Made by a program: the position numbers and the translations under genes. The notes beneath the pieces are model-generated. The model saw nothing but the letters and a program-made list of their open reading frames with translations, ran no database searches and was not told the DNA's origin. DNA of 64,000 nt from a bacterium (lineage in GTDB: Bacteria > Patescibacteriota > Microgenomatia > Levybacterales > UBA12049): the NCBI GenBank assembly GCA_021791545.1, contig JAJYWL010000016.1:219704-283703 (forward strand), in the 5' to 3' direction. Shown here piece after piece: positions 2 through 28,949 of this stretch; position 1 is the first letter of the stretch, and each line of letters begins with the position of its first letter.

Positions 2-85
2 ACAAGAATCTTTGGACCTGTCGCAAGAGAGGTAAGAGACGCGGGATTTACTAAAATCGCCAGCATGGCAGTGGAGGTAGTTTAA
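2..85 (+). CDS. rplN: 50S ribosomal protein L14, 3' partial (..TRIFGPVAREVRDAGFTKIASMAVEVV*)
   Basis: Frame-2 translation matches the conserved uL14 C-terminus. It lies immediately upstream of rplX. Confidence 0.75.
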   Translation, partial: TRIFGPVAREVRDAGFTKIASMAVEVV

Positions 86-10798: not shown

Positions 10799-10801
10799 TA
10801 C

Positions 10802-11149: not shown

Positions 11150-11194
11150 GGATAAATTTTACTAAGGGTTTGTAAGTAGAGTGTTAGAGGATGT

Positions 11195-12229
11195 TTAGCT
11201 TTTTCTTTCGCCGATTATATTTATTAAGGCAGAGAATTTTTCTTTTCCTTCTATTGAAATTTCACCTTCATCAACAATTTTTTGTGCTTTACTCAAGTTT
11301 TCTTCTATCAATTTTTTGCCTTCTTCAAAAGCTCCGGATTGAGTAAAGACATTTCGAAGGGTTTCATAATCATTAGATGAAACTTCCTTTCCGAAATATT
11401 CCCTTAGTTTTTCTTTCTGTTCATCCGTTCCATTATGGAAAACAAAATTTGTGAAGAATGTGGGTTGGTTTGCAGCAATATCTGTAAATACACTTTTATG
11501 TAACACTTTAGGATCTCCCGTTAAATCAAGCATATCGTCCTGCATCTGAAATGCAAAGCCTAATTTTTCCCCCAGGTTTCTGCAGAAATCAAAGAAGTCT
11601 TTATCTGCCAAAGATGCTCCTACTTGTAAAGGTTTAATGAATGAATATCCAGAGGATTTTAGAAGAATCTTTTCATTTATTTCTTCATCATTTACAGACT
11701 CTTTGGTAGTTAAATCAATATCTACCATTTGCCCCATGATTACCTCGTCTGTCATTTGATAGAAAAGTTCTTTTGTCTTAGGATTTGTTTTATCAAATAA
11801 TTGCATTGCCCAAACAACTAGTACGTCTCCTACGAGAACTGCTTGTGAATATGCTACGTGCTTTAAATCTCCTGTTCTTTGTTCTTCTTTTAGTTTTTCT
11901 AAAACAAAAGAATTTATTGTACTTACGTTATGTCTTGTGGAAGCCTTATCCATAAAATCGTCATGAACAAGAAGGGAATTATGTAAGACTTCTAGGGCAA
12001 TAAGGTAATCCCAAATTTCATCTAAATTGTTTCCTTCTAAAGAGGAGTACATAAGGTAGGCAAGATATGGTCTCAATCTTTTTCCTCCAGCAAGTATTTC
12101 TTTTGTGTGGTTTGAGAAATCTGTTATGAAAGGATTTGATGTCTGAGAGGTAAATACTGAGAATTTTTTATTGAGAAACTCCTGTAGTTTTGGATCAAAA
12201 ACCTCTTTAAATTCTTTAAGGGAAAACAT
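11195..12229 (-). CDS. polyprenyl (isoprenyl diphosphate) synthase, trans-IPPS family
   Basis: Two Asp-rich motifs: LLVHDDFMD and FQMQDDMLD. Start trimmed to an internal ATG (MFSLKEF). Confidence 0.75.
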   Translation of the reverse strand: MFSLKEFKEVFDPKLQEFLNKKFSVFTSQTSNPFITDFSNHTKEILAGGKRLRPYLAYLMYSSLEGNNLDEIWDYLIALEVLHNSLLVHDDFMDKASTRHNVSTINSFVLEKLKEEQRTGDLKHVAYSQAVLVGDVLVVWAMQLFDKTNPKTKELFYQMTDEVIMGQMVDIDLTTKESVNDEEINEKILLKSSGYSFIKPLQVGASLADKDFFDFCRNLGEKLGFAFQMQDDMLDLTGDPKVLHKSVFTDIAANQPTFFTNFVFHNGTDEQKEKLREYFGKEVSSNDYETLRNVFTQSGAFEEGKKLIEENLSKAQKIVDEGEISIEGKEKFSALINIIGERKS

Positions 12230-12394
12230 AATAAAGTGAGTCGGCCTGAGGGACTTTCTTTTGAACACTTTCTGCCTTGGATAGATAAGATTATGAATGC
12301 TTATCAAATCAAAGAAGAAAATTCAATAGATTTTATAAATCCAACAGGGCATTCTGACGAATATTATAGGAGAAAAATAAACTAAAAGAAAGAG

Positions 12395-12604
12395 TTATAG
12401 AGGAAATGTTAATTTTATTCCTAATGCTTTGGCAATATTATTTATAATGTTCCATCTGGGGGTTGGTTCTCCTCTTTCAATTCTTGCGTAGTAATTAACA
12501 TGTATACCGGCTTTTTTTGCCACCTGTAATTGTGTTAAATTTTGTTCTTCCCGTGCAGATCTAAATTTTTCTCCTAGTTTTTTTATATCTACAGAACTAT
12601 CCAT
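12395..12604 (-). CDS. XRE-family HTH transcriptional regulator (69 aa)
   Basis: QNLTQLQVAKKAGIHVNYYARIERGE helix-turn-helix motif. Confidence 0.75.
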   Translation of the reverse strand: MDSSVDIKKLGEKFRSAREEQNLTQLQVAKKAGIHVNYYARIERGEPTPRWNIINNIAKALGIKLTFPL

Positions 12605-12766: not shown

Positions 12767-13588
12767 TTATTTACTCAGTTCCCACACAGAAAAATAGCTC
12801 GGTTTGTGATAAGTTTTATTTTGAGCTAAGCTACTAGTCTCCAATTTTTGTTTTAAATTATCAACTACTATTTCTTGTTTCTCAGAAAGTTTATCGGATA
12901 TTAATCCTGTTGATTTTTTGAAATCGTACATTACACAACCCAATAAAATATCTACTACCTGTAATAATAAAGACGAATGTGATTCTAGTCTACTTACGCC
13001 AAATACCGAATCAGGCATTTTATTTTTTGTTAATCTGTATTTAATTGCATCTGTCAATGACCGCTCAAATGATTTTTTAATATTTGTTGGCCTGGTTAGG
13101 TCATCAGCAAGTACGCAAATTCCACAAGGAGAAATATTTTTTATGTTATTTGCAATCAACATAGAAGCTTGGAGAATGTATGTTTCCCAAGGATTAATTA
13201 CTGGTTGCCATTTAGATTTATTATCTGCATGTTTTTGTCTATCAATAACAAGCGCACAAAATCTGACATTTGAAAATTTAAAATAATTATCTAATAAAGA
13301 GCTATAAATTGTATTATTAGTTGAATTAATATACTTAAATTTTAATTCGAAATTTCTTGTACTTTTGGCAATTTCAGCAATTTGTTCGTATTCCGCATTT
13401 TTTGTTAAATCCGCAATTCTTGCTGTTTTCTGTGCACGGGCAATATCTTTTGCTTTATCATAAAATGGCTTCATAGAATCATAGAAATCACCAATTTCAT
13501 CATCAACCAAAAGAAGTCCCAATCCAAAATATCTTTCTTGAGAAGAATTTCCACTTTCATCAATAAATGCAAAATAGTTTTTCGACAT
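12767..13588 (-). CDS. DUF3800-like protein (RNase H-like fold predicted)
   Basis: N-terminal FAFIDESGN motif characteristic of DUF3800. Start set at the internal ATG downstream of a TTGACC-N18-TATAAT promoter. Confidence 0.55.
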   Translation of the reverse strand: MSKNYFAFIDESGNSSQERYFGLGLLLVDDEIGDFYDSMKPFYDKAKDIARAQKTARIADLTKNAEYEQIAEIAKSTRNFELKFKYINSTNNTIYSSLLDNYFKFSNVRFCALVIDRQKHADNKSKWQPVINPWETYILQASMLIANNIKNISPCGICVLADDLTRPTNIKKSFERSLTDAIKYRLTKNKMPDSVFGVSRLESHSSLLLQVVDILLGCVMYDFKKSTGLISDKLSEKQEIVVDNLKQKLETSSLAQNKTYHKPSYFSVWELSK

Positions 13589-13606
13589 AAATTCTAGAAT
13601 AGCCAA

Positions 13607-13636
13607 ATTATACGCTCGGTTAAGCTTTAAGGTCAA
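13607..13636 (-). promoter_or_regulatory. promoter TTGACC-N18-TATAAT for DUF3800 gene
   Basis: Hexamers read on the minus strand, 18 nt upstream of the ATG at 13588. Confidence 0.45.
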
Positions 13637-13694
13637 GTTAAGCAGAGATTAATTAAGCTTGACAGTATTAAATAAATACTGATAATCTAAATAT

Positions 13695-14498: not shown

Positions 14499-14652
14499 TG
14501 ATTTATCCATTAGCTTGAAAATAGCCACGAACAGGTTTAACTTGATATAAATTACGTTGCAACAATAGGTCTTCTTGATGCTTTTTATATAGTTAGGATT
14601 CTATTATTATAATTATCTTGTAAAAATACGCACATTCTTATAAACTCTACTC

Positions 14653-15567: not shown

Positions 15568-15596
15568 ATATATTGTATCAATTGCTTTAAACACAA

Positions 15597-15938
15597 TCAC
15601 TTTGAATACTCTGCAAACAGCTTTTCTTTTTCTTCCAAAATATGGTGCAGTTGTTTTTCCATGTTTCTAATAGCCTCCCATACTTCCGGTTTGTTTCTTA
15701 AATCCAAAACATTGTGAAGTTCTGCATATTGGGCTAATAATTGGTGATGTCTATTTTCTAATGCCTTTTTAATATATTGAAACTGGATGTGTCTACTAAG
15801 TGTATGCCACTCTGGAAAATTTGCCAAAAAATTTGGATCATATTCTCCCATTTCAATTGTCTTTTCCAAGGTCATATTCGGGCTTTGAGATGGTGTCCCT
15901 CCGCCTATGCTCTGTTCGCTTTCTCCTTGTTCTTCCAT
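15597..15938 (-). CDS. hypothetical protein (start at internal MEEQGE)
   Basis: ORF only. Confidence 0.35.
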   Translation of the reverse strand: MEEQGESEQSIGGGTPSQSPNMTLEKTIEMGEYDPNFLANFPEWHTLSRHIQFQYIKKALENRHHQLLAQYAELHNVLDLRNKPEVWEAIRNMEKQLHHILEEKEKLFAEYSK

Positions 15939-16091
15939 AATGAAATTATATACTATTTTATAGTATAGGCTTGATATTAAAATTACAATGTAATTACAGA
16001 TTAAAGCCAAATTAAAAACAGATTTAATCTAATTTTGACAAAGAATACGAACAGGAATTAACTAATAATTGTTTTATAATATAATTACTTT

Positions 16092-16478
16092 ATGGACAAA
16101 AGAATCGGAACAGTCTGCTTTATAATTCAGGATAATAATATACTTCTTGCTTTAATTGAGTACGGACCAAACGACAGAAAATGGAATGGAATTGGAGGAC
16201 ATGTTGATTCTAATGAATCCCCTGAAGATGCAGTAGTTAGGGAGTTTTCAGAAGAAACATATATTAAAGTTAATAAAAATGATCTTATTAAGGTATTGGA
16301 AATAAATAGCGATATTAAATTATTGGTATATAAGACAAATCATTGGCAGGGAGAAATAAAAGCAAAAGAAATATCGCTTAAAGAATTTAGGTGGTTTGAT
16401 AAAGACGAAATACCTTTCGATCAAATGTATCCCGACAATAAGGAGTGGTTACCAAAGCTATTTGTAAATGAACCTTAA
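16092..16478 (+). CDS. NUDIX hydrolase
   Basis: Nudix box GGHVDSNESPEDAVVREFSEETYI. TATAAT lies 6 nt upstream of the ATG. Confidence 0.8.
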   Translation: MDKRIGTVCFIIQDNNILLALIEYGPNDRKWNGIGGHVDSNESPEDAVVREFSEETYIKVNKNDLIKVLEINSDIKLLVYKTNHWQGEIKAKEISLKEFRWFDKDEIPFDQMYPDNKEWLPKLFVNEP

Positions 16479-17511
16479 TGATTTTAAATCATATTTAGAA
16501 GAACAAACTAGGAAGGATTTATTTTCTGGGTCCGTTTTAATTACAAAAGACGATAATACGTTTCTTGAATACGCATCCGGTTTTGCTAATAAAGAAAAGC
16601 AAATTAAAAATAATATAAACACAAAGTTTAATTTAGGTTCTATGAATAAAATGTTCACTGGGGTTGCTATTGTCCAACTAGCACAAGACGGAAAATTATC
16701 TTTTCAAGATATAGTCGGAAAGTTTATTCCCAATTACCCTAATAAAGAGGTTTTAGAAAAAGTTACGATCCATCAATTACTGACACATACTTCGGGGTTG
16801 GGACATTACCTAAATGAAAAGTATATGGAAAAAAGAACCCAACTTAAAACAATAGATGATTTTATTGCTCTTTTTGCTGAAGAACCTCTTTTGTTTGAAC
16901 CCGGAACAAAATGCATTTACAGCGCAAACGGATACACCTTACTTGGAAAAATAATTGAAGTTATTTCTGAAATCAGCTATTACGATTATGTTAAACAAAA
17001 TATTTTTCTTAAAGCGAATATGTTAAATACTGATTCCTACGAAATTGACTCCAATAACATACCTGAAGATATTGCAATCGGATATACACGAAGAATTGAT
17101 ATCCAGGGTAATATGAATGAAGAAGGGGAACGCAAGGATAATCTTTGGATTAACCTTATCAAAGGAGATTCCGGAGGTGGTGGTTATTCTACTTGTCCAG
17201 ATTTACTTAATTTTTCAAACACTTTGTTAAATAATAAATTATTAAATCCGGAAATGACTAAAATAGTTTTAACCCCATATGTAAACGAAGGCACTAAAAA
17301 CGGTCAGACTAAAAATGAAGGTTATGGATTCCAGGTTTGGGATATTAATGGCATTAAAAGAATCGGTCATCCGGGAAGATTTGCCGGAGTTAATACCCGT
17401 TTTGATGTGTATCCTGATTTAGGGATAACAGTTGTAGTTTTGGCAAATTATGATCCACCAGCTGCGTTTGATATTGCAGAGAACGCTACAAAACTAATTA
17501 CAACCAGTTAA
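16468..17511 (+). CDS. serine hydrolase, beta-lactamase/PBP-like family
   Basis: SMNK (SxxK) active-site motif, plus YSANG and HPG elements. Length 347 aa. Confidence 0.7.
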   Translation: MNLNDFKSYLEEQTRKDLFSGSVLITKDDNTFLEYASGFANKEKQIKNNINTKFNLGSMNKMFTGVAIVQLAQDGKLSFQDIVGKFIPNYPNKEVLEKVTIHQLLTHTSGLGHYLNEKYMEKRTQLKTIDDFIALFAEEPLLFEPGTKCIYSANGYTLLGKIIEVISEISYYDYVKQNIFLKANMLNTDSYEIDSNNIPEDIAIGYTRRIDIQGNMNEEGERKDNLWINLIKGDSGGGGYSTCPDLLNFSNTLLNNKLLNPEMTKIVLTPYVNEGTKNGQTKNEGYGFQVWDINGIKRIGHPGRFAGVNTRFDVYPDLGITVVVLANYDPPAAFDIAENATKLITTS

Positions 17512-17570
17512 TTTTCTATAATATTTTATCTCCTAATGTTTACTCTCTAACAGATGCATCTAAAAATACA

Positions 17571-18032
17571 TTATTTTGTTAACTCTATTGGGGGTCTTTG
17601 GGGAATTTCCTCATTTGTATTTGGTATTTCAAAAATCACATACAACCCGCTACCAGTCATTTGAGTAGGAATATGTATTGGTATATATTTTTCTTTAGTA
17701 AAATTTTCTCCAAATTTTTTCTTTACTTCTTCGTGTACGCTTGCACCCATTACGCTGCCAACGGATATTGTGCCTTTTGGAATCAGCTGATCCACGCTAT
17801 GAATATTTAATTCTTTCATTTTAGGATAAATTTCCTGAATTTGTTCAAAACACAAAAGGATTATGTTTAAAATTTCATAGCCAGCTCTAATATAGTCATC
17901 TTCCGTTGGTTTTTCTTCCGTTCCCTCGATGCTAAAGTCTTGAATCTTTTTTAATGCGGGTAACGAGCTGATATTCGTATTCGAAAAGTTAAACCCTTGA
18001 GGAAAATAATTTTTAATATAATATTCCGCCAT
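17571..18032 (-). CDS. hypothetical protein
   Basis: ORF only; start at internal ATG (MAEYYIKNYF). Confidence 0.35.
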   Translation of the reverse strand: MAEYYIKNYFPQGFNFSNTNISSLPALKKIQDFSIEGTEEKPTEDDYIRAGYEILNIILLCFEQIQEIYPKMKELNIHSVDQLIPKGTISVGSVMGASVHEEVKKKFGENFTKEKYIPIHIPTQMTGSGLYVIFEIPNTNEEIPQRPPIELTK

Positions 18033-18106
18033 AATTAATACACTATTACAATTTCTAAGAAATAGCAATGTCCGAATAGGATTTAAGCATAGTTCTAACT
18101 AATTAG

Positions 18107-18160
18107 AATACGTCAGCTGCCTTTGACATTGCAGTAAAAGTATTTAGCTTTCTTTTCTAA
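18107..18160 (+). pseudogene. 3' remnant of a second beta-lactamase-family gene (encodes ..SAAFDIAVKVF..)
   Basis: 19/22 nt identity to 17463-17484 (the 3' end of the intact gene), in the same frame and encoding AAFDIA. Confidence 0.4.
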
Positions 18161-18187
18161 TAATAATTTAAATAAAATTTTTATGTT

Positions 18188-19579
18188 CTAATATTCAATC
18201 GCCTTGGGAAACTGTCTTATTTGGGGTGTTGGTTGAACAAAGGTACTTCTATAATTTCTGTAATCAAGAGTTGCCAGTTCTGTTGCTCTTTTTCTTCTTA
18301 TATTGGTTTCGCCGTTCTCACCTACCATTCCCGGAAATAGTGCTTTAAAATATCTGTCGGGGAATAATGGATCTTGTGAAACTGCTGTATCCAACTTTCT
18401 TGCAATATCTGGCGGGACTGCGACAGATAGACGAACCTGCACCCCTCCACGAGTATCATAAGGCGTTTCTGTATACATGTAATAATCGTAGGATGACCAG
18501 TCTTTTTCTCCATGTTTTCCTTGAAAAGTTTTCGCTTCCTCTCCGCTTCCCGTATAACTAGTTGCCTGAAAATTACTCGCAACCCACATTTGCCTATTTA
18601 CATGGTCATATGGAGACCAAACATTATGGTTGGGAGAACTATAATCATAATCAAATTGATATCTGGGTAAAAATTTTTGTAATGCCCGATAGTCCGCTTC
18701 ATTACCGACAATATTGCTTCCCATAGAAAAACCTTGTCCTGGATATTGACCTAACCCATTGGTCTTATCTACAGGATATAGAAAGCCCCAAAGCTGACCA
18801 AAACCATTATCATGAGTTGCCTTAGCAAGCTCATTAGCTATTTGTTCCTGTTGTTCTTCGGCAGATTTTGTTTCTGAAGTTCTTGAGCTTACATTTGCAT
18901 CAGACTGTTGCTCTGTTGATCGTGGCACTTCATTCTCTTCACGTATTAGTCTATCTTCTAAATTTCTAGCTGCCGCAATACGGAATTTTAATTCAGCCGC
19001 GTCACCAGGTGACAATTCATCATTATCTAATATTCCATGCCATTCATAAATTAATCCTTGTAAAATATCAGTTGCTTCCGAAGCTTGCATTTTTTTTGCT
19101 TCTGGAAGAAAATCTTCCATCTCAGTACTGAGAATGTCTCCGCCTGAAGCAATTAGCTCCTGAGTTTTTTCATCCATTAAATCAATTGCTTTCATACCAG
19201 CTATCATATCTGCTACTTCAATTTCCTTTTCAGTTAATTGAGCTTGTTTAATCGCATGCATATGTTCAGGACTATTTCTATACCCAGGATTATTTCTTGT
19301 ATTTTTTAATAAACTGGCATTTTGTTTTTTAAGAGTATCCTCAAGACGCAAGGTAACATTAGTCAAAGAGCCTGGTATTGGAGTTGTTTCTGAAGAATCG
19401 CCACCTTCAGCAAGTCTTTTAATAACATCGTCGGGATTTGCTCCTTGGTTAACTTCATTACCAATACTTTCCCCCGTTGCCTTAGCAGTTGCATCTACTC
19501 TTGGAACTTCAGGTCGAATATTCGGCTTTGTAGTTTCTTGTCTGACAATAGGTTGTTCTGGTGTTGGTAAATCAGGCAT
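18188..19579 (-). CDS. hypothetical protein, 463 aa, Pro/Glu-rich N-terminus, Tyr/Trp/Asp-rich C-terminal domain
   Basis: Long ORF translationally coupled to the upstream small ORF (8-nt overlap). Confidence 0.55.
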   Translation of the reverse strand: MPDLPTPEQPIVRQETTKPNIRPEVPRVDATAKATGESIGNEVNQGANPDDVIKRLAEGGDSSETTPIPGSLTNVTLRLEDTLKKQNASLLKNTRNNPGYRNSPEHMHAIKQAQLTEKEIEVADMIAGMKAIDLMDEKTQELIASGGDILSTEMEDFLPEAKKMQASEATDILQGLIYEWHGILDNDELSPGDAAELKFRIAAARNLEDRLIREENEVPRSTEQQSDANVSSRTSETKSAEEQQEQIANELAKATHDNGFGQLWGFLYPVDKTNGLGQYPGQGFSMGSNIVGNEADYRALQKFLPRYQFDYDYSSPNHNVWSPYDHVNRQMWVASNFQATSYTGSGEEAKTFQGKHGEKDWSSYDYYMYTETPYDTRGGVQVRLSVAVPPDIARKLDTAVSQDPLFPDRYFKALFPGMVGENGETNIRRKRATELATLDYRNYRSTFVQPTPQIRQFPKAIEY

Positions 19580-19922
19580 TTTTATCCTCCTTTTGCAGGC
19601 TTTGTTTTAAAAGCTTTTCTGCTTCGTCAAATTTTCCCGATTTTATCATCATTTCTGCATGTTTGGCAACCAATTTATCTACTTCTGATTCGTGTTCTGA
19701 TAATAAGGGAAGTATGGCTTGAGAAAGTTCTGTAAAATGGTCATCTAAAGTTGGAGCAATTTCGTATATTTGTTCTAATGTTAACGGTGGATGAAGTTTC
19801 TCCAATAGCAATTTTGCAATTTGTTGTGCCCGGTCTAAATCCATTTGCCCGTTTTGTAATTTCTGGGCAATAATTTCCAGAATATCCTTTTCCAGTTGTT
19901 TTCTTTTTTCTTCAGCATCCAT
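19572..19922 (-). CDS. small acidic all-helical protein (116 aa)
   Basis: ORF lying 2 nt after the kinase-like gene and overlapping the next start. Confidence 0.45.
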   Translation of the reverse strand: MDAEEKRKQLEKDILEIIAQKLQNGQMDLDRAQQIAKLLLEKLHPPLTLEQIYEIAPTLDDHFTELSQAILPLLSEHESEVDKLVAKHAEMMIKSGKFDEAEKLLKQSLQKEDKNA

Positions 19923-19924
19923 AA

Positions 19925-20440
19925 TTATTGTATATTTTTCTTTATTTCATTAATACATTCTTCTAAGGCGTCCTCTTCAGTATTTAGAAAAATTGCATTT
20001 TCTATTGGATTATTAATTACTTTATTTAGTAGACTTTCAATTACATTTCTGTCCATTGGTGGTCTAATACCATTTGTCTGGTCAGATCTTTCTTTATCAC
20101 GCTTGATTAATGTTTCAATTGAACAATCAAGCTGATAAACAAAATATTTAATATTTCTTTTCTTAGCAATTTCAATTGCATTATTTGCATACTCAGATTT
20201 TTTAAATATTCCTTCGTAAACAACTGTATAACCTCTGTCCAACAGGTTTTCTAAAACTGCATAACATGTTTTAAAAACCTCATCTAAAGCCCTATCGTCG
20301 CTTGGGTTATCGAAAAACTCTTTTAAGTTATCTGTTTTAAACCAAACAACTTTGTTGTCAAAATCCCTTAATTGTTTTGCAATGGTTGTTTTGCCACTTG
20401 CAGGAGCACCCCGTAAGACTATTAAAGTTTGCATCATCAA
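19925..20440 (-). CDS. P-loop kinase-like ATPase (AAA_33/zeta-toxin-like fold)
   Basis: Walker A GAPASGKTT at the N-terminus; 171 aa. Confidence 0.6.
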   Translation of the reverse strand: MMMQTLIVLRGAPASGKTTIAKQLRDFDNKVVWFKTDNLKEFFDNPSDDRALDEVFKTCYAVLENLLDRGYTVVYEGIFKKSEYANNAIEIAKKRNIKYFVYQLDCSIETLIKRDKERSDQTNGIRPPMDRNVIESLLNKVINNPIENAIFLNTEEDALEECINEIKKNIQ

Positions 20441-20503
20441 AATTATATCATTTTTAGGAGTATTTGCTTTCTTTTATTAAAGGGCAGTTTAATTAGAAAT
20501 ATC

Positions 20504-21403
20504 TTATTCTTCCTTAATTATTTTCCAAACCTTTTCTCCTCCTAAGATTGTATCTGTCATAATCTTTTGATATGTAGTTAATAAAAAGGTAATTTTTGGT
20601 TCTTCATAGCTATACATAAGTTCGTCATTTATAAATTTTATGTAAAAGTTCATAATATGAAAATTAGGAAAGATAAGTATTATTTTAGGAAACTCTCCAT
20701 GCATGTTTTCGTAAAGAGCTAATTCGTTCTTTTCTTCTTTAAGTCTTATGTATTGTTTAATCCTATGTTTAATTGCATATTTTGGCATTTTTGGATCAAA
20801 GACTTCAATCATAAAACAATTATCTTCTATGGTTTCATTCCCTTTATATTTAAATTTTTCTACATATAGATCCGGGATAAACTGCTTAATGTTATTAAAT
20901 TCTTCAGTTGAACTTACTTGATTTAATTTCTCAATCCAGTTTTCAGTTTTACTAGAAATTTCATATTCAATCTCCGATTCTTTTTTACCTTTATTTTTAA
21001 GGTATTCAAAGATTTTAAATTGGGTATAAATCTCAGAGATTAGGATGCAGTGATTTATAAAAGTTTTAGAAGCATTTTTATCTTCATAGAACTTTTTAAG
21101 ATGTTTAATTTCAACTTCCCCTTCATTATTAGAGAATGATTGATAATTATATCTTGCCCAGATAATACCGTTGTTATTTAAGTAATATATTGCAGGTTTA
21201 GTATTTTCTAATAGCTTATGCGAATATATTCTTCCTAAATATTCTTTAGTAACTAAATCCTTAAGCCATACATTAATTCTTTTAGCATCTTTATGTCTTA
21301 ACAGCCTTTGTATTTGATGTCTATTAACAAATCTTAATTTAATTATTATTTCAAGTATTTCTTTTTGTTTATTTGTTATTTCAGGAAGTATTTTGTAGTT
21401 CAT
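20504..21403 (-). CDS. replication-relaxation (Replic_Relax) family protein
   Basis: N-terminal wHTH pattern ITNKQKEILEIIIKLRFVNRHQIQRLL; about 300 aa; very AT-rich. Confidence 0.55.
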   Translation of the reverse strand: MNYKILPEITNKQKEILEIIIKLRFVNRHQIQRLLRHKDAKRINVWLKDLVTKEYLGRIYSHKLLENTKPAIYYLNNNGIIWARYNYQSFSNNEGEVEIKHLKKFYEDKNASKTFINHCILISEIYTQFKIFEYLKNKGKKESEIEYEISSKTENWIEKLNQVSSTEEFNNIKQFIPDLYVEKFKYKGNETIEDNCFMIEVFDPKMPKYAIKHRIKQYIRLKEEKNELALYENMHGEFPKIILIFPNFHIMNFYIKFINDELMYSYEEPKITFLLTTYQKIMTDTILGGEKVWKIIKEE

Positions 21404-21642
21404 ATTGTATATTGTTTTTATGAGGCAGTTTATTAGAGGCAGTATTATTTACTTTAAGGGGATTATATCACTTTTGATTATCTTTTTATCTTTACTTACT
21501 TATTTTCTTTATTCTATATTTATATAGAAAAGGAAGGAATTATAATTTACTAATTTACCCTCAAAAATAGTATCATTCGTAGCTTCAGGCTTGTCCTAGC
21601 CGGAGGGGACAGAAATTAAGCGAACCACAAGATTATTGCCTC

Positions 21643-21672
21643 TTGACAACTATCTCGATTGAGATATATACT
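21643..21672 (+). promoter_or_regulatory. promoter TTGACA-N18-TATACT overlapped by nested TATCTC/GAGATA palindromes (operator-like)
   Basis: Hexamers and inverted repeats read directly (AACTATCTCgattGAGATAtatacTATCTCcaatGAGATAGTT). Confidence 0.45.
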
Positions 21673-21693
21673 ATCTCCAATGAGATAGTTAAT

Positions 21694-22017
21694 ATGCAAG
21701 CCTTAGAATTACCAATAACTCAAACTACGCACTACGAAGACAATATTTCTACTAATGAATTTACTTCTCAAGCCCTGACCACAAACCCCTTCAATGTACT
21801 AGATAATTCTTTCAATCGAATTTTTAACCAAAACTTTGAGGAAAAGATAGTTCTTCAAATGAGAAAAATGCTAGGAGAAAAAGCAAATACGCTTACTGAT
21901 GAGAAAGTCGAATGCTTGGCAACAGAATTTCAATTTCTTATTAATACCTGGCTTGATGAATATGAAAGAGATGTTTTTGGGGGAATGACTTTAAAAGAGG
22001 TTTTAAACGAAAAATAA
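21694..22017 (+). CDS. small hypothetical protein co-transcribed with the serine recombinase
   Basis: ORF ends 2 nt before the recombinase ATG; start at the first ATG after the promoter. Confidence 0.4.
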   Translation: MQALELPITQTTHYEDNISTNEFTSQALTTNPFNVLDNSFNRIFNQNFEEKIVLQMRKMLGEKANTLTDEKVECLATEFQFLINTWLDEYERDVFGGMTLKEVLNEK

Positions 22018-22019
22018 AC

Positions 22020-23549
22020 ATGAGAAATATTATTAATAATGATACAAAACGGGCAATTATCTATATTCGTGTTTCAACTGATGAACAGGTTGATAATTTC
22101 TCCTTGGAAACCCAACAAAAAATATGCATTCAGGAGGCAGAAAGACGTGGGATGGAGATTGTCAAAACTTTTAGAGAAGAAGGGAAATCTGCAAAGACAA
22201 TAATGGGAAGACCGGTTTTGATGGAACTTTTGGAGTTTTGTCGAAAAAATAAAAGAAATATTGATGCCGTAATTGTTTATAGATTAGATAGGGTTTCTCG
22301 TCAATTGCAAGATTATTTAGCTATTCGAAAAAGACTTGCAGAATATCAAATTACAATTATTTCCGCATCTGAACCCACCGGCAATAGTCCTACCGAAAGA
22401 TTTATTGAATCAATGCTTGCAAGTTTTGCTCAAATGGACAACGATGTTAGAGGCGAAAGAGCCAAGAATGGCTTAAAAGCAAGATTTTTAGCAGGACTTT
22501 CAAGCGGCACTCTTCCTCTTGGTTATATATACGAAAACGGATATGCGGTAAAAGATCCAAACACTTGGGATAAAATAAAAAACGCTTGGGAGCTTATGGC
22601 AACCGGCACAAAAACTCTTCAGGAAATGGCTACGCTTATGAATGAATGGGGTTTAAGACAAAGATATAATATTGGCGAACAAATTATTCGGGCGCAAGCT
22701 TTAAGCCGGATGTTTAGGAATAAATACTACATTGGTATTTTAGTTTCAAGTAAATATCCCGAACAGGTTCGCGCACAACATTTACCGATGATTTCCGAAG
22801 CCATTTTTTATAGAGTCCAGGCAGCAATTGACGGAAGAAGTAATATTGTTAAAACACAAGTTTCTAGGAGAAATAAAGATAATAAAGAGTTTCCTTTAAG
22901 AAGAATTTTAGTTTGTGATCATTGTGGAAATCCTGTAACAGGAGGATGGAGTAAGGGTAAACTTACTAGATACGCATATTATCGTTGCCAAAAAGGTTGT
23001 CGTGTTCCTTCTATTTCTGCAGATAAAGTACACGAGGCAACGACTCATTTTCTATCAGGTATAACACCAACAAAAGAAGGATTAGATGCTTTCATTGCGC
23101 TTTTAAGAAGAACATATTACGAGCGAGTCACACAATTACAAAAAAGAAGAGATGAAGCAGATAACGAACTGAAAAAATTATATGAACTTCGCCAGTCTTT
23201 AATTCAGAAAAATTTAGATGGTATTTATTCCGATGAAATATTCAAAGAACAGAACAAGCTTATTGAAGAGCAAATTGCAAATGTCCAAATTACTAAAGAT
23301 GATGCATTACTTGCAAAATACAATCTTGAGGCAATTATTAAATTTATGAAAGAAAAATTTTCAAATTTAGGAAAAACTTATCAGATGTCAAACTTAAGTC
23401 AACTCCGAGTGCTCTTGTGTTCAATTTTCCCCGCTGGTATGCGTTGGAGCTATCCGGGCTACTACAACACCGAAATTAGCCCGATATATCAATCTATTCG
23501 TATGTTTGATTGTAATCAGATCTCCTCTTGTCGGGGTGCCGAGAATTGA
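22020..23549 (+). CDS. large serine recombinase (integrase)
   Basis: N-terminus AIIYIRVSTDEQ resolvase catalytic motif, a recombinase domain, and a zinc ribbon CDHC..C..C; 509 aa. Confidence 0.85.
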   Translation: MRNIINNDTKRAIIYIRVSTDEQVDNFSLETQQKICIQEAERRGMEIVKTFREEGKSAKTIMGRPVLMELLEFCRKNKRNIDAVIVYRLDRVSRQLQDYLAIRKRLAEYQITIISASEPTGNSPTERFIESMLASFAQMDNDVRGERAKNGLKARFLAGLSSGTLPLGYIYENGYAVKDPNTWDKIKNAWELMATGTKTLQEMATLMNEWGLRQRYNIGEQIIRAQALSRMFRNKYYIGILVSSKYPEQVRAQHLPMISEAIFYRVQAAIDGRSNIVKTQVSRRNKDNKEFPLRRILVCDHCGNPVTGGWSKGKLTRYAYYRCQKGCRVPSISADKVHEATTHFLSGITPTKEGLDAFIALLRRTYYERVTQLQKRRDEADNELKKLYELRQSLIQKNLDGIYSDEIFKEQNKLIEEQIANVQITKDDALLAKYNLEAIIKFMKEKFSNLGKTYQMSNLSQLRVLLCSIFPAGMRWSYPGYYNTEISPIYQSIRMFDCNQISSCRGAEN

Positions 23550-23601
23550 ACTCGGCCCACACGCACCCCATGCGCGCATTCTACCGATAAACTACACCCC
23601 G
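23531..23601 (-). tRNA. tRNA-Pro (anticodon GGG)
   Basis: Manual cloverleaf: 7-bp acceptor CGGGGTG/CACCCCG, anticodon stem CGCGC/GCGTG, loop AUGGGGU, T-arm CCGAG-UUCAAUU-CUCGG. No encoded CCA. Confidence 0.75.
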
Positions 23602-23663
23602 AAATACCATAGTATTATATAACATTGAACTTATTTATTCATTAACTCTGATATACTTTTCTT

Positions 23664-24152
23664 ATGGAATTTACTATTTGTCCCGGATGTGGAGTAAGAC
23701 TTCTTAAATCCGATTCTTTGCCTGAGAAAAAATTTAATTCTTCCAAAGAATGCTGGGAGTTATTCTGCCAGTTATCAGCTCTCACTCCAAATTATGATGA
23801 AGAATTTATTCATCAAATGGCAATAGATACATATGAAGCGCAGCATGGAGGAGGGGATACAAAAAATATTGCAGTAGTTTTTGGACTAGCAGGATTATAT
23901 CTCTCCTTAGAGAACAATTATTCAGGAAGACAAGTTCAAAAAGCTCATATGGTTCTAGGAGAGAAAAATAAAGAATGGCCAAAATTAGAACCTCCAACTT
24001 TTAATTGGGAATATACAGTTAAAGATGTTTTGGATTCTTCTTTAGAGAAAGGTTTAAAAGAAGAGATAAGGAAATGGGCAGAAGTTACATGGAAAGGTTG
24101 GGGAGAGCAGCAAAAGACAATTGAAGATATCTGTAACTACTATTTATCTTAG
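23664..24152 (+). CDS. hypothetical protein (162 aa)
   Basis: ORF; TATACT lies 6 nt upstream of the ATG. Confidence 0.45.
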   Translation: MEFTICPGCGVRLLKSDSLPEKKFNSSKECWELFCQLSALTPNYDEEFIHQMAIDTYEAQHGGGDTKNIAVVFGLAGLYLSLENNYSGRQVQKAHMVLGEKNKEWPKLEPPTFNWEYTVKDVLDSSLEKGLKEEIRKWAEVTWKGWGEQQKTIEDICNYYLS

Positions 24153-24514
24153 TTTTTCTTAAGAAGTTTTCTTGAATAGTTTCCGATTATTCCCAAAACT
24201 ATTCCGCAGGCTCCTCCGAAGACTCCCAAAGCCCCAAAGGGAATAAATCTTGTAACTACTGGAGTAGTTCCTGTATATCCATGAACCATGAAGAAGAAAG
24301 AAACAAAAAATCCGAATAGGAAACCGTTTAAAAGAGCATTTCTTATTGTTTTAGAGAAATATCCAATTGTTACACCTGCCACTGTCCAGATTATTAGGTT
24401 ATATACTGAGCCTGCAAGAATATATTTTGCTAAAAGTCCTAATACAATTCCGGCAACTATGGAATAGACCATTACTCTTTGTTCTTGCTTCATTAAATTA
24501 GGATAGCTCTCCAA
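24149..24514 (-). CDS. small integral membrane protein
   Basis: Four predicted hydrophobic helices. Confidence 0.45.
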   Translation of the reverse strand: MESYPNLMKQEQRVMVYSIVAGIVLGLLAKYILAGSVYNLIIWTVAGVTIGYFSKTIRNALLNGFLFGFFVSFFFMVHGYTGTTPVVTRFIPFGALGVFGGACGIVLGIIGNYSRKLLKKN

Positions 24515-26255: not shown

Positions 26256-27536
26256 TTGTCTTCAATTATTAATATGGCAGATAACGATTTAGCAATACTA
26301 GAAAAGAAACTTCTTGAAAGAGAAGAAAAATTAGATGCCGAGAAAGAAAAACTCGAAAAAGAAAAAGCTCATTTGCAACAGCTTAAGGATGAATATTCAG
26401 ATAAGCTTGCTCATGTCTCGGGCTTAACAAAAGATGAGGCAAGAGAAGAGCTTTTAAGACAAACTGAAGAAAGAGAAGCACAGACTGTTGCAAAAATAAT
26501 TAGGGAAAGACAGGAAGAAGCAAAAAGAACTGCAGATAAAGAAGGACAAGAAATCCTCGTAGATTCTATGCGCCACGGCGCCATCAACTTTATTCCAGAA
26601 TACACTGTCTCTGTGGTCAGAATTCCTGACGAAGAATTAAAAGGAAGAATAATCGGAAAAGAAGGAAGAAACATAAGAGCATTTGAACAGGCAACAGGAG
26701 TAGATGTTGATTTGGATGAAGAAGGAGTAATAAGACTTTCTTCTTTTGATCAGATAAGAAGGGAAGTTGCAAGAAGATCACTCGAAAAACTTATCAAAGA
26801 TACAAGGATCCAGCCTTTTAGGATTGAAGAAATTGTAGACCAGACAAAGAAAGAAGTAGAAAAAATAATGTTTGAGGAGGGAGAAAGACTTTCTCATGAA
26901 GCAGGAGTATTCAATCTTCCAGCAGAATTGATAGCAATCCTCGGAAGATTCAAATTCAGAACATCATATGGACAAAACTTGGTAGTTCATACCTTGGAAG
27001 ACGTTAAAATTGGAGTTCATATTGCACAAGAAATTGGAGCAGATGCTAATATTGTGCGACTCGGATGTCTCTTCCATGATATAGGAAAAGTAATGGAAGG
27101 TGAAGGAAGCCACGTAAAATTAGGAGTAGACCTTCTTAAAAGATTTAATATCCCCGACCAGATAGTAAATTGTGTCTGGGAACATCATGAAGACAAACCT
27201 TTTTCATCTGTTGAATCGGTAATAGTTCATATTGCAGATCAGATATCCGGAGCAAGACCTGGAGCAAGATATGAGGATGTAGAAGAATATGCAAATAGAC
27301 TTTCAGATATGGAAGAAATCGCAAAGAAATATGACGGAGTTGAAGACGCGTATGCATTTGAAGCAGGAAGAGAATTAAGAGTCATAATAAATCCGGGAAA
27401 ACTTGATGATGCACAGACGACAATAATAGCAGATAAGATAAGAGATGAGGTTGCTAAAGCATTGGCAGTTCCCGGAGAAATTAAAGTAACGGCAATAAGA
27501 GAATTTAGGGCAGTATCTACAGAGTTTTCTTCTTAA
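26256..27536 (+). CDS. rny: ribonuclease Y (KH + HD domains; no N-terminal TM helix)
   Basis: KH motif IIGKEGRNIR and HD motif LFHDIGK. Confidence 0.82.
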   Translation: MSSIINMADNDLAILEKKLLEREEKLDAEKEKLEKEKAHLQQLKDEYSDKLAHVSGLTKDEAREELLRQTEEREAQTVAKIIRERQEEAKRTADKEGQEILVDSMRHGAINFIPEYTVSVVRIPDEELKGRIIGKEGRNIRAFEQATGVDVDLDEEGVIRLSSFDQIRREVARRSLEKLIKDTRIQPFRIEEIVDQTKKEVEKIMFEEGERLSHEAGVFNLPAELIAILGRFKFRTSYGQNLVVHTLEDVKIGVHIAQEIGADANIVRLGCLFHDIGKVMEGEGSHVKLGVDLLKRFNIPDQIVNCVWEHHEDKPFSSVESVIVHIADQISGARPGARYEDVEEYANRLSDMEEIAKKYDGVEDAYAFEAGRELRVIINPGKLDDAQTTIIADKIRDEVAKALAVPGEIKVTAIREFRAVSTEFSS

Positions 27537-28198
27537 GGTTTATTTCCTTCTACTTCGTTAAGTAATTCAGCAATTTGTTTATATGCTAGTCTTCCTTCTT
27601 GAGTATCTCCTTGGGGAAAAGCTCCCCTAAGAATTCTTCCAACTGGAGCTCCGTCTAGTTTTGCAAGTTTAACTCTATCATTTTGAGTAATCAGTCTTGC
27701 TCTAAGCTCATTAAATCTTTTGGCAAGTTCATTATAGGCGTGTGGATCTATTGGTTTTTGAAGGTCAATTGAAGAGGGCTGTAAATCTTCTTTTCTTACT
27801 GCATTTATTCCTAACGTCTGTAAATGTTCACCTATTTTATCTCTTGAAACTCCAGTGGTAATTGCGGCATTAATTATTTCTTGTATATTTTTATTCATCA
27901 CATCTTGCGGAAGTTCTTTTTTTGCGTAAGCTCTTGAGATAGCATTTAGCCAACCTCTTTCCTCTGAAGGTTTTCTATTCCAACTTCCGTCAGGATTTTG
28001 TTCCTCCGGGCGCATGGCAGAAGGTCTAATAATTTCATCTCCTATTATTGGTGGTTCTTTTCCGGGGTTTGCTTCTTGGAAATCGAAAGGTTTTCGTGTA
28101 ACACCAAGCTCTACATCACTTGGTCCATTATCTATACCCATTAAAAAGAGAATAACATAATCTAAATATTGTTGCAAAATTCTTAGGGTATTTGGCAT
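27533..28198 (-). CDS. hypothetical protein (221 aa)
   Basis: ORF only. Confidence 0.4.
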   Translation of the reverse strand: MPNTLRILQQYLDYVILFLMGIDNGPSDVELGVTRKPFDFQEANPGKEPPIIGDEIIRPSAMRPEEQNPDGSWNRKPSEERGWLNAISRAYAKKELPQDVMNKNIQEIINAAITTGVSRDKIGEHLQTLGINAVRKEDLQPSSIDLQKPIDPHAYNELAKRFNELRARLITQNDRVKLAKLDGAPVGRILRGAFPQGDTQEGRLAYKQIAELLNEVEGNKP

Positions 28199-28217
28199 GA
28201 TATACTAAACAAATAAA

Positions 28218-28949
28218 ATGTATTACCACACCCATGTTTACTATTCAAGAAGGATAGATAAGAATTTGGATCCGCTAAAAATTGTAGGAAGTTTTCTTCC
28301 CGATCTTGCTCTTACTTCGGTAATTAATTTCAACGACCTACATAAAAAGAAAAGTACTTTAGATTTTTTTGATTATGTTAAAAATAATGAACCTTCATTT
28401 GAACCGCTTCTTACGGGAATAAAATATCATAATAATCTTGATTATACTTCCCATGTAGAATATAAAAATATAACTCCTGGATATGCATATTCTAGTATCA
28501 CTCCCCAACTTTATGATGCAGTTTCAAAGACCAATGTTTCCGAAGAACGTATAAAAGCTTCGTGCCATAATTACATAGAAAACGGAGTAGAATTTCATAT
28601 CTTATGTGAAGAGCCTTTTTTAGAATCATTGGTCAAAGACTCAATCGAGAATACAGATACAGAAAAACTTATAAAGTTATTATCCGGATTTTTTGGAAAA
28701 TCTGAAAATGAATTTAGAGAATCACTTAGAGTGTTTTTCTCTTTTGTAACCGGTTATGATTTCAGGGACATAAGTGGATGGGTAGATTTTACTGTAGATT
28801 TGAATAAGTATTATCTTAAAGTCGATATAGATAAAGAATTGACTAAAGAAGCTTTAAATATCGCACTTGATATAACTAAACCTACTTATAAAGAATATTT
28901 GGATTTTTCCATTGCTTTAGAGGATAAGGAAGTTAAAGACGCTAACTAA
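28218..28949 (+). CDS. hypothetical protein (243 aa)
   Basis: ORF only; divergent from the previous gene with a 19-nt gap. Confidence 0.4.
   Translation: MYYHTHVYYSRRIDKNLDPLKIVGSFLPDLALTSVINFNDLHKKKSTLDFFDYVKNNEPSFEPLLTGIKYHNNLDYTSHVEYKNITPGYAYSSITPQLYDAVSKTNVSEERIKASCHNYIENGVEFHILCEEPFLESLVKDSIENTDTEKLIKLLSGFFGKSENEFRESLRVFFSFVTGYDFRDISGWVDFTVDLNKYYLKVDIDKELTKEALNIALDITKPTYKEYLDFSIALEDKEVKDAN

Follow-up and report, generated by a model that had tools for sequence, protein, structure and literature searches.

A probable serine-integrase element at the 3′ tip of a patescibacterial tRNA-Pro gene, with attP inside the integrase reading frame

Main finding

Positions 12245-23534 of the window, the whole 64-kb stretch of DNA that we analyzed, are very probably an 11.3-kb integrative plasmid-like element that was inserted at the 3′ tip of tRNA-Pro(GGG) by its large serine recombinase (LSR), through conservative site-specific recombination. 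In the mechanism that we propose, the LSR would recombine an attP lying inside the 3′ end of its own ORF with an attB at the tRNA tip, exchange taking place within the sequence GTCGG. A T-loop motif in the tRNA may serve as the host half-site signal for the zinc-ribbon domain. Integration would detach about 46 C-terminal residues, and the tail of the ORF would then be read from antisense tRNA as far as a TGA codon. A wider reading, possible and offered here tentatively, is that LSR clades of the Patescibacteria read the T-loop and acceptor end of tRNAs, retarget easily, and sense their own integration state through a C-terminal helix.

The recombinase and its overlap with tRNA-Pro

The ORF at 22020..23549 on the plus strand (509 aa; ORF list, Pfam and homologue alignment) is an LSR by the criteria of its catalytic, Recombinase and zinc-ribbon domains, here in its integrated, truncated form. 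The Pfam matches are Resolvase (1.8e-32, residues 12-157), Recombinase (184-273) and Zn_ribbon_recom (292-342). Residues Y15, R17, V18 and S19 of the YxRVST motif, including the nucleophilic serine, are invariant across 37 homologues, and the zinc-ribbon cysteines C299, C302 and C323 are invariant in the homologue alignment. An AF2 model of the homologue P0073 predicts long helices at 352-400 and 405-426, after the ribbon. The only recombinase encoded in the element is of the serine type; Pfam and PHROG gave no tyrosine recombinase there.

The window has a single tRNA. ARAGORN accepts it as tRNA-Pro(GGG), at 23530..23601 on the minus strand; the mature tRNA has 71 nt (23531-23601), and the 72nd base of the prediction is a trailing C. 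As the earlier note had reported, the LSR ORF runs convergently into the 3′ 19 nt of the tRNA (20 nt if the trailing C is counted) and its stop lies inside the tRNA, on which ARAGORN and the ORF list agree. The stop is TGA at 23547-23549, which can be read off the sequence as the antisense of T-loop positions 57-56-55. The last codons of the ORF, GGT GCC GAG AAT TGA (GAEN and the stop), are antisense of the host tRNA.

Junctions of the element

In four loci (L086, L087, L088 and L092) the polyprenyl synthase gene, tRNA-Pro(GGG) and the DUF5946 gene are adjacent with no element, and BLAST finds the element DNA absent from these empty-site contigs. L086 is from a closely related genome and fixes the junctions to the base. 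Its positions 1-9872 align with window 2370-12244, and 9868-10483 with window 23530-24146 (BLAST). The two segments overlap by 5 nt, GTCGG, and L086 9868-9872 matches both copies in the window. The element is the 11,290 bp between the copies at 12240-12244 and 23530-23534. The core corresponds to tRNA positions 70-73 plus one trailer base. This alignment with a related tRNA-Pro, the comparison that the earlier note had recommended, places the crossover within GTCGG at the extreme 3′ tip of the tRNA, not in the T-arm, and limits the duplication on insertion to 5 bp. The candidate crossover dinucleotides are G0T1 or T1S2, within the 4-nt intersection of the cores.

On the plus strand, attL begins with the B arm (12215..12239), host DNA that lies 3′ of the tRNA in the empty site and aligns with L086 through the core. 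There follow the attL copy of GTCGG (12240..12244), identified by its match to L086 9868-9872 and containing the crossover, and the P′ arm of attP (12245..12270), with TTTGAAC at 12260-12266. The P′ arm is conserved in nine loci, and in the window its nhmmer match covers 12241-12318 (E = 1.2e-12). attR begins with the P arm of attP (23505..23529, plus strand), located by junction alignment, with TTTGAT at 23505-23510 and a position that is fixed relative to the tRNA in 59/64 loci. It lies inside the LSR ORF, where it is read as the codons F-D-C-N-Q-I-S-S-C. The attR copy of the core (23530..23534, plus strand) consists, by the empty-site comparison, of the trailer base and tRNA positions 73-70. 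Beyond it is the tRNA itself (23531..23601, minus strand; ARAGORN and identity to the empty site), which is intact and whose 3′ part forms the B′ half-site, with TTGAAC (T-loop and G53) at 23546-23551. attB is made up of the downstream flank, GTCGG, and the acceptor and T-arm of the tRNA.

Some other signals were set aside. k-mer matches to TGTCGGGG at 18355 and TCTCCTCTT at 12468 are due to chance. A left end at 12308-12394 is excluded, as the empty site gives 12240-12244. The regular expression TGGTG-N-GTGGAACC, applied upstream of LSRs, was too narrow a pattern and gave nothing useful. The plus strand shows no excess of exact junction-spanning repeats of at least 9 nt over the minus-strand control (totals of 9 and 10), and such repeats are mostly chance; those of L080 (14 nt) and L020 (11 nt) were confirmed afterwards by way of the P′ arm.

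The arrangement is shared by related recombinases

In 68 loci, the window and 67 of the 80 homologue loci that were fetched, the 3′ end of the LSR ORF overlaps a convergent tRNA. Spacing and frame could be scored in 64 of the 68. In 59 of them the conserved I-S-P codon and the discriminator base are exactly 56 nt apart, the reading frame relative to the tRNA is common to 63, and position 0 is G in all 64. Such uniform spacing and frame bear out the idea that the overlap is no accident. Ten or more tRNA species serve as targets, as does one tmRNA (in L038). In dozens of genomes the integrated copies, 55-90% identical, have kept their ORF open at about 500 aa. Among more distant LSRs, at least two (35% and 31% identity) likewise use a tRNA tip, as does one that is too divergent for tblastn. 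In homologues that have no adjacent tRNA the tail is not tRNA-like, and it is not conserved with the integrated tail.

Besides the window, attL was located in eight other loci, giving 9 to 11 of about 70 loci in all. The number is low because most elements are longer than the 10-kb flank or have P′ arms that have diverged. The common core measures 5 bp in the window; in the eight other loci it is 5-14 bp long, and the intersection is 4 nt. A scan of viral contigs gave three loci only, so that the LSR family has no prominent place among called viruses. Against the phage and plasmid records searched, tblastn identity did not exceed 27%.

The reading frame continues across attP

Given that attP lies within the 3′ end of the LSR gene, integration cuts the ORF. 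The detached 3′ segment is found at 12245..12385 on the plus strand and has 46 codons plus a stop, encoding PEGLSFEHFLPWIDKIMNAYQIKEENSIDFINPTGHSDEYYRRKIN. Only in the excised circle, which we reconstructed and which has an ORF of 551 aa, does this segment share the frame of the LSR. The reconstructed attP thus carries the ORF in frame into 12245-12385, which agrees with the earlier placing of attP within the 3′ end of the integrase gene. Reconstruction gave an in-frame attP in 9/9 loci, with excised forms of 514-552 aa. Unrecombined attP is present in four contigs (L084/P0073, L085/P0027, L035 and L097), and these depart from tRNA sequence directly after the core. In the attP-form contigs, that of the close relative L097 among them, CTCTTGTCGG is followed by the non-tRNA sequence GCTGAGGGAC.

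Peptides homologous to the extension are encoded in eight other integrated loci, and in L084/P0073 the peptide is contiguous with the LSR. The element provides no separate start codon for the extension peptide. Past the att site the divergence at codon positions 1/2/3 is 0.54/0.35/0.62, an order (position 2 < 1 < 3) that is protein-like. Within the P′ arm the corresponding values are 0.41/0.30/0.32, and the first ~26 nt past the core are under constraint at the DNA level, third codon positions being no less conserved than second ones. The DNA and peptide constraints are separable because GAAC and the FE-peptide lie 21 nt apart in L084. In the AF2 model of P0073 residues 504-510 are disordered and a helix is predicted at 513-531, with pLDDT 71-87 over 511-530 from an alignment that is shallow over the extension.

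In sequence terms, the 551-aa product of the excised circle includes a flexible linker and an amphipathic helix that is conserved. In the integrated form 504 residues are coded by the element; reading then runs on into antisense tRNA, which adds a short tail that is not under selection. The integrated-state tails are random read-through of 5-75 aa. The extension is not universal, being absent or short in some attP forms; in L085 and L035 a short unrelated tail follows the core. A profile search with the extension returned short ORFs only, namely attL-side fragments and LSR-less scars, and no further full-length enzymes. The state-specific C-terminus may modulate activity, stability or directionality. 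Its conservation provides a testable idea on directionality control, and if the enzyme does sense its integration state, the position of attP would encode a built-in switch for directionality or stability.

A T-loop motif and the offset between half-sites

The sequence TTYGAAC is found at +15..21 in B′ (the tRNA) and at +20..26 in P′ in 9/9 loci. Counting from the discriminator base, GAAC is at +18..21 in B′ and at +23..26 in P′. The P′-type spacing (GAAC at +23..26) is also seen in L084, L085, L035 and L057. The distance from motif to core is 5 bp shorter in the host half-site than in that of the element, an offset that is seen in right half-sites only. The ZD motif of the LI integrase is shifted by 5 bp in attB compared with attP (PMC3783163). 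By analogy, the offset in TTYGAAC probably corresponds to the displacement of the zinc-ribbon-domain motif by which attB and attP of LSRs differ, and B′ would be recognized via the near-universal T-loop motif. Reading of B′ through TTYGAAC would explain how the clade moves among at least 10 tRNA species and tmRNA.

The B arms show no conserved motif across the loci, and the definition of attB is therefore one-sided. TTTGAT of the P arm mirrors the P′ motif in part only, with the center of symmetry on a base and not between two. If the T-loop is the motif of the zinc-ribbon domain, rapid target switching among tRNAs is explained. It would also yield a rule by which genome-island finders could detect elements with hardly any repeat, and integrases with a host half-site in every genome would be of practical interest as integrase tools.

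Content of the element and its flanks

The left flank is collinear with L086 up to window 12244, at 94.9% identity, and holds the host polyprenyl synthetase gene (11195..12229, minus strand; Pfam polyprenyl_synt 1.9e-47), whose ATG is 11 nt past the tRNA 3′ end in the empty site. On the right is the host DUF5946 gene (23664..24152, plus strand; Pfam DUF5946 9.8e-29). Its homologue P0121 (96% identical) marks the empty-site contigs; a metagenome scan with the DUF5946 protein gave no matches.

At the left end of the element is an XRE-type HTH regulator (12395..12604, minus strand; Pfam HTH_3 6.5e-14, PHROG transcriptional repressor or regulator), homologues of which adjoin attL or attP in L080, L020, L084 and L097. 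The cargo comprises a DUF3800 protein (12767..13636, minus strand; Pfam DUF3800 3.1e-10), three ORFs at 13695-14498 (plus), 14653-15567 (plus) and 15597-16010 (minus) that are absent from the empty-site contigs and match nothing in Pfam or PHROG, a NUDIX hydrolase (16092-16478, plus strand; Pfam NUDIX 8.6e-16) and a beta-lactamase-fold protein (16468-17511, plus strand; Pfam Beta-lactamase 1.3e-50). Two ORFs of 165 aa and 463 aa on the minus strand (17571..19579) have no Pfam or PHROG match. They are followed on the same strand by a P-loop kinase resembling zeta-toxin and AAA_33 (19925..20440; Pfam Zeta_toxin 1.9e-09, AAA_33 7e-09) and a protein of the Replication-relaxation family (20504..21403; Pfam Replic_Relax 4.9e-09), of plasmid-type maintenance or transfer, homologues of which are upstream of the LSR in 42/80 loci. 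Directly upstream of the LSR is a conserved ORF of 124 aa (21643..22017, plus strand) with no family match in Pfam or PHROG. Using tblastn we found homologues in the same position in 79/80 loci, and it may be a candidate accessory or directionality factor. The element has the LSR module and the Replic_Relax protein; it has no phage structural genes and no coupling ATPase, and no relaxase or oriT was identified in it. Elements of relatives have a TrwB/TraD-like coupling protein beside the LSR.

Alternative explanations

The earlier note saw in the overlap a sign that the element itself supplies the 3′ segment of the tRNA. The crossover would then lie inside the T-arm and acceptor, and the element's own tRNA 3′ 19 nt would replace those of the host, as in tyrosine-integrase islands. 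The ORF does overlap exactly these 19 nt, and while the tRNA-Pro of the window is identical (71/71) to those of the empty sites L086, L088 and L092, identity between occupied and empty sites cannot alone show the origin of the 3′ part. The left junction speaks against an element-borne end, as attL retains just TCGG (4 nt of the tRNA) and then passes into element DNA. The partial tRNA-Pro fragment expected at the far end of the island was not found there: the window has no second copy of the tRNA 3′ 25-mer with up to 3 mismatches allowed, and blastn-short of each tRNA against up to 10 kb gave no tRNA-fragment repeats upstream in ~60 loci, so that no displaced fragment is seen in the window or upstream in at least 60 other loci. 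Moreover, the attP-form contigs carry non-tRNA sequence after the core, not GGTGCCGAGAATTGAAC. We regard replacement of the tRNA end as very improbable. This part of the earlier interpretation falls, whereas the LSR as integrase of an element at tRNA-Pro, with attP in the 3′ end of its gene, stands. To judge from the junctions, the T-arm and most of the acceptor strand under the ORF are host DNA, and the body of the tRNA is intact. That LSR and tRNA have nothing to do with each other, the overlap being a chance by-product of a compact genome, is scarcely credible. Gene overlaps are common in small genomes, and nothing further favors it; spacing and frame are kept (59/64 and 63/64) across 10 tRNA species, and the insertion boundary is exactly at the tRNA tip.

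Continuity of the ORF across attP could be incidental, with the extension reflecting constraint on the DNA (the P′ arm and signals of the HTH gene) and the C-terminal swap having no effect. DNA-like conservation of the first ~26 nt after the core fits this, as do the short unrelated tails of the L085 and L035 attP forms and the random tails of integrated copies. It accounts poorly for the protein-like divergence past the att site, for the nine in-frame reconstructions out of nine of an extension without its own start codon, and for the defined helix predicted by AF2, and we consider it rather unlikely. It is more doubtful still that truncation has disabled the integrated LSR, in the manner of the 'suicidal' SSV-type enzymes, leaving the element of the window as a fixed and immobile remnant. 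attP does lie inside the ORF as in the SSV-type integrases (PMC7253208), and the coupling ATPase that relatives carry is missing, but the catalytic and DNA-binding domains are all intact in the integrated ORF, which is kept open at ~500 aa in the integrated copies of dozens of genomes. Occupied and empty sites also coexist among strains with 92-98% identical flanks. Several contigs of the empty-site run set (SRR340186xx-SRR340187xx) break inside the tRNA, which fits a polymorphic site and is not proof of one.

Comparison with known integration systems

Tyrosine-integrase elements at tRNA 3′ ends were reportedly described by Williams in 2002. Insertion by an LSR at the tRNA tip, the reading that we prefer, shares with the islands, ICEs and IMEs of tyrosine integrases a target at the 3′ end of a tRNA or tmRNA gene, an adjacent int and a preserved tRNA (PMC5704250, PMC5357655). 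Those islands carry a tRNA 3′ segment and have a direct repeat of tens of nt, whereas here 4-14 nt are shared. Every tRNA-targeting case in the same two reviews is a tyrosine integrase; the reviews consulted assign tRNA 3′-end integration to tyrosine integrases and protein genes to serine integrases. In the literature that we searched, which did not extend to TIGER/Islander frequencies, we found no description of LSRs that target tRNA. The present loci form a large and coherent serine-integrase clade that uses the tRNA tip and neither duplicates nor damages the tRNA itself.

The phage-type LSRs (A118/LI, Bxb1 and phiC31) have the same Resolvase/Recombinase/zinc-ribbon organization with a long coiled-coil insertion, and similarly short att sites with a tiny common core and no long direct repeats. 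In these too the distal motif is 5 bp nearer the center in attB than in attP (PMC3783163). They differ in targeting a protein gene or an intergenic site and not the 3′ tip of a tRNA or tmRNA, and here attP is inside the integrase ORF and the element resembles a plasmid or ICE and is not a phage. Exchange of 3′ ends by a serine integrase has already been reported for streptococcal rumA ICEs. In these ICEs and IMEs, which have a single serine integrase, a repeat is present in both the target gene and the integrase gene and the 3′ parts are exchanged (Ambroset et al. 2016, PMC4701971). As here, the att repeat lies inside the serine-integrase gene and the C-terminus is changed on integration (PMC4701971). 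There, however, integration takes place in a protein gene, the 3′ end of this gene is altered as well, and there is a change of frame (PMC4701971), whereas here an RNA gene is left intact, the frame across attP is kept and the segment that is detached encodes a conserved peptide. The hosts are Patescibacteria and the target is a tRNA; the two groups are set apart by description, not by sequence relatedness.

The SSV1-type 'suicidal' tyrosine integrases of archaea also have attP in the int ORF, and integration into a tRNA gene partitions int (PMC7253208, PMC8371274). The SSV1-type enzymes belong to the tyrosine recombinases, their identity segments are long, and integration leaves int as two inactive parts (PMC7253208, PMC8371274), whereas in the present case ~46 C-terminal residues are detached and the recognized serine-recombinase domains all remain in one ORF. 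In the cluster G/P mycobacteriophages attP again lies in a coding sequence, and integration changes the C-terminus of a protein and its behavior (PMC4557955). There it is the repressor that is cut, by a tyrosine integrase and with a demonstrated functional effect (PMC4557955), whereas here the protein is the integrase itself and an effect is inferred.

Integration at the tip of a tRNA gene

The ORF at 22020..23549 on the plus strand encodes a 509-aa protein identified as a large serine recombinase (LSR) by its matches to the Pfam families Resolvase, Recombinase and Zn_ribbon_recom. The sole tRNA of the window, tRNA-Pro(GGG), is called by ARAGORN at 23530..23601 on the minus strand; its mature 71 nt (23531-23601) are followed by CAA, not CCA. 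The LSR stop codon TGA (23547-23549) lies within the antisense of the T-loop, and the two genes overlap by 19 nt, or 20 nt if the trailing C is counted. TRNA prediction and ORF coordinates thus confirm the overlap with the 3' 19 nt of the tRNA seen in the earlier note. T-loop bases 57-56-55 form a single codon in the LSR frame. Where position 57 = A, as here and throughout the 20-nt overlap class, the codon is TGA, and so the stop falls within the tRNA; where it is G, the codon CGA is read through, giving tails with RT.

The right flank encodes a DUF5946 protein (23664-24152). In contigs carrying a 96%-identical homologue, P0121 (L086, L087, L088 and L092), the genes for polyprenyl synthase, tRNA-Pro(GGG) and DUF5946 adjoin one another without the element. 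BLAST aligned positions 1-9872 of L086, from a closely related genome, with 2370-12244 of the window (94.9%), and 9868-10483 with 23530-24146. These alignments share 5 nt, GTCGG, so that this sequence occurs at both 12240-12244 and 23530-23534. No part of the intervening 11.3 kb was found by BLAST in the empty-site contigs, and this comparison bounds the element at 12245-23534.

The empty host site (attB) reads ...AATAAATTGAG TCGG GGTGCCGAGAATTGAAC..., the left junction (attL) ...AATAAAGTGAG TCGG CCTGAGGGACTTTCTTTTGAACAC... and the right junction (attR) ...GATCTCCTCTTG TCGG GGTGCCGAGAATTGAAC.... This places the exchange inside GTCGG, which comprises tRNA positions 73-70 and a single trailer base. 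Host DNA makes up the T-arm and most of the acceptor strand under the LSR ORF, and the last codons of the integrated LSR, GGT GCC GAG AAT TGA, arise by reading through into the host. The earlier note had suggested that the element supplies the tRNA 3' segment. It does not, since the empty-site and window tRNAs are identical over all 71 nt and the exchange is confined to GTCGG. Nor was the partial tRNA-Pro fragment it envisaged at the other island end found in the window; none was found upstream in about 60 other loci, and junction-spanning repeats of at least 9 nt were equally frequent on the control strand. Its placing of attP, the site of the excised circle, within the 3' end of the integrase gene is upheld by the junctions and by the in-frame continuation over attP described below.

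In the empty site (L086 9855-9872; window 12227-12244) a gap of 11 nt separates the tRNA-Pro 3' end from the ATG of polyprenyl synthase, which has the same orientation, and the two may share a transcript there. Insertion parts them by 11.3 kb, and an element HTH gene on the same strand now lies upstream of the synthase. Four Logan contigs of a relative (L089, L090, L091 and L093) have their first bases within the tRNA-Pro gene; a mixture of occupied and empty sites in those samples would be expected to break assemblies in this way. A further ~680 nt of the window, at 27536-28218, have no counterpart in L086; they hold an ORF (27533-28198, minus strand, 221 aa) without a Pfam match. Conversely, the window lacks beside DUF5946 (24146-24159) a stretch of ~475 nt (L086 10483-10958) with a 156-aa ORF.

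The arrangement is shared by a family of recombinases

The LSR has more than 1,000 homologues, the best 120 of which are 57-90% identical. Their C-terminal tails resemble translated antisense tRNA, e.g. G.RT, LYQLSY and DHLGYLG. In 67 of 80 genome loci, mostly labelled as Patescibacteria lineages, the LSR ORF enters a convergent tRNA; most of the remaining 13 are cut by contig ends, with tRNA-like sequence still visible. One member (L038, 11491-11919) lies at a tmRNA gene in place of a tRNA. Spacing was analyzed in 68 loci including the window, 64 of them scorable. Exactly 56 nt separate the I-S-P codon and the discriminator base in 59/64, and the reading frame is common to 63/64. The base preceding the discriminator complement is G in every case (64/64), and that complement is T in 55/64. 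The targets are tRNAs for Leu (20), Glu (12), Pro (10), Gly (6), Phe (5), Ser, Arg and Ala (3 each), Asp and Lys (1 each). The nearest relative (L001, 90% identity) is at tRNA-Pro(CGG). More distant LSRs also end in a convergent tRNA: that of L082 (35% identity), the second LSR of L057 (31%), and the 617-aa LSR of L037, which is too divergent for tblastn. The element of the window has inserted at the tip of its tRNA gene by exchange within a 5-bp core, leaving the host tRNA intact.

The 1.61-Mb chromosome OZ246394.1 carries two family elements (L004 and L023, 75% and 59% identical to the window LSR), at Leu-GAG and Glu-CTC tRNAs. In L019 (11482-11575) ARAGORN found no tRNA after the LSR, which is followed by a ~25-nt tRNA-Glu-like 3' fragment (TGGTGACCCATCCGATTCTCGAAC) and then unrelated sequence; the target may have decayed here, or the LSR may have used a secondary site. 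The database records of many family contigs (L001, L002, L004, L005 and others) name 'uncultured Gammaproteobacteria', 'Pseudomonadales' or 'Flavobacteriales' as the source. The nearest relatives of these contigs bear labels of Patescibacteria lineages, and the deposited labels may be unreliable.

Architecture of the att sites

We located attL in eight other loci through the element arm P' and the peptide encoded there. Including the window, the common cores are 5-14 nt long, and in L021 the spacing favors GTGCC. They intersect in 4 nt (G0, T1, S2, S3), the complement of C74, the discriminator and positions 72-71, so that the crossover dinucleotide should be G0T1 or T1S2. The palindromic pair S2S3 is unlikely on general principles of LSR function. 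Crossover is probably at G0T1.

Counting from the discriminator base, TTYGAAC is found at +20..26 in every P' arm and at +15..21 in every tRNA, where it comprises T54-Psi55-C56, G53 and neighbors. In the unrecombined-site contigs L084/P0073, L085/P0027 and L035, and in the chimeric site of L057, the sequence departs from tRNA directly after the core, with GAAC at +23..26 irrespective of coding register. In the published LSR model the zinc-ribbon-domain (ZD) motif is 5 bp further inward in attB than in attP (Rutherford et al. 2013, PMC3783163). We infer that the ZD contacts the T-loop motif. The P arm has TTYGA(W) at -25..-20, encoding F-D/E of a conserved RMF(D/E), and the B arms share no motif. 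Together with the TTYGAAC offset this suggests that the host site is recognized mainly through the universal tRNA end, which would explain why so many tRNA species are used. The enzyme would then read the host half-site through the T-loop motif, 5 bp nearer the core than in P'.

An inverted repeat of locus-dependent sequence is often present in the 8-codon linker before the tRNA (window 23509-23520; -22..-6 elsewhere), e.g. TGATT..AATCA in the window and GTGACCTAG..CTAGGGTCAC in L021. The linker folding z-score is < -1.5 in 28% (29-nt windows), against 3-9% in two control windows inside the LSR gene.

Excision would extend the LSR reading frame

Joining the left side of attR to the right side of attL reconstructs attP. 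The LSR frame continues across it in 9/9 loci, giving excised forms of 514-552 aa; that of the window has 551 aa, ending ...SSCR PEGLSFEHFLPWIDKIMNAYQIKEENSIDFINPTGHSDEYYRRKIN. The added peptide (encoded by 12245-12385 in the integrated state) has a motif common to these loci, (L/F)xFEH(F/L)LxW(I/L)xx(I/L)MxAY, which in P0073 runs on from the LSR without a break. Inside the element the peptide lacks a start codon of its own. Since attP lies inside the ORF, integration remodels the LSR C-terminus. The AlphaFold2 model of P0073 (mean pLDDT 82) has a disordered linker at 504-510 (<50) and then a helix at 513-531, in a region of shallow alignment.

Pairwise divergence past the att site is 0.54/0.35/0.62 at codon positions 1/2/3, as expected of coding sequence. 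The values within the P' arm are 0.41/0.30/0.32, which indicates that the arm is under added constraint at the DNA level. The extension could merely ride on the att site. That full-length and truncated LSR differ in function is the most tentative of our suggestions.

Tandem elements and sites lacking an LSR

Tandem arrays at a single tRNA occur in several loci. In L057 (10001-19407) and L037 (3533-9314) a family LSR is followed by a chimeric P-core-P' site and a second element with its own divergent LSR, reading into tRNA-Ala and tRNA-Pro respectively. L080 has two P' arms (1934-2001 and 5148-5234). The short ORFs P0159-P0168 and the loci L094-L097 comprise the last ~60 nt of the LSR gene, core, P' arm and extension, with no LSR body upstream. 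Their LSR match begins at the ISPIYQ codons (L094 10001-10231; L095; L096; L097 68-301), and L097 is nearly identical to the P arm of the window. By analogy with streptococcal elements, for which accretion with chimeric attI sites has been described (PMC5704250), they look like scars of an older element that may have been reused as attB, with accretion at one tRNA. They could instead be satellites that borrow an LSR.

Element content and relation to known systems

The element encodes an XRE-type HTH regulator, a DUF3800 protein, a NUDIX hydrolase, a beta-lactamase-fold protein, a P-loop kinase, a Replic_Relax protein, a conserved 124-aa ORF, the LSR, and several ORFs without a family match. 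It contains no phage structural genes, and reads as an integrative, plasmid-like or mobilizable element. In many relatives a TrwB/TraD-like coupling ATPase, absent from the element of the window, adjoins the small ORF and the LSR. This small ORF of 124 aa, upstream of the LSR, is a candidate accessory factor. The G+C content falls to 0.28 near 20-22 kb.

These elements form a Patescibacteria clade that uses serine integrases at tRNA or tmRNA tips with almost no repeat, and that remodels the C-terminus of its own integrase on integration. In the ICE and IME reviews consulted, tyrosine integrases account for every target at a tRNA 3' end, and the genes disrupted by serine integrases are dispensable protein genes (PMC4701971, PMC5704250, PMC5357655). 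No description of such a system was found in the literature on serine recombinases, tRNA and Patescibacteria/CPR, within incomplete coverage, and no LSR in phage and plasmid collections exceeds 27% identity. As a principle the C-terminal swap is already known, because in rumA-targeting streptococcal ICEs integration exchanges the 3' part of rumA with that of the integrase gene (PMC4701971); in mechanism these ICEs are the nearest precedent for an attP within the gene of a serine integrase. The SSV-type archaeal tyrosine integrases similarly have attP in the ORF and tRNA targets, but integration leaves them in two inactive halves (PMC7253208). The gene cut in integration-dependent immunity encodes a repressor (PMC4557955), whereas here it is that of the integrase.
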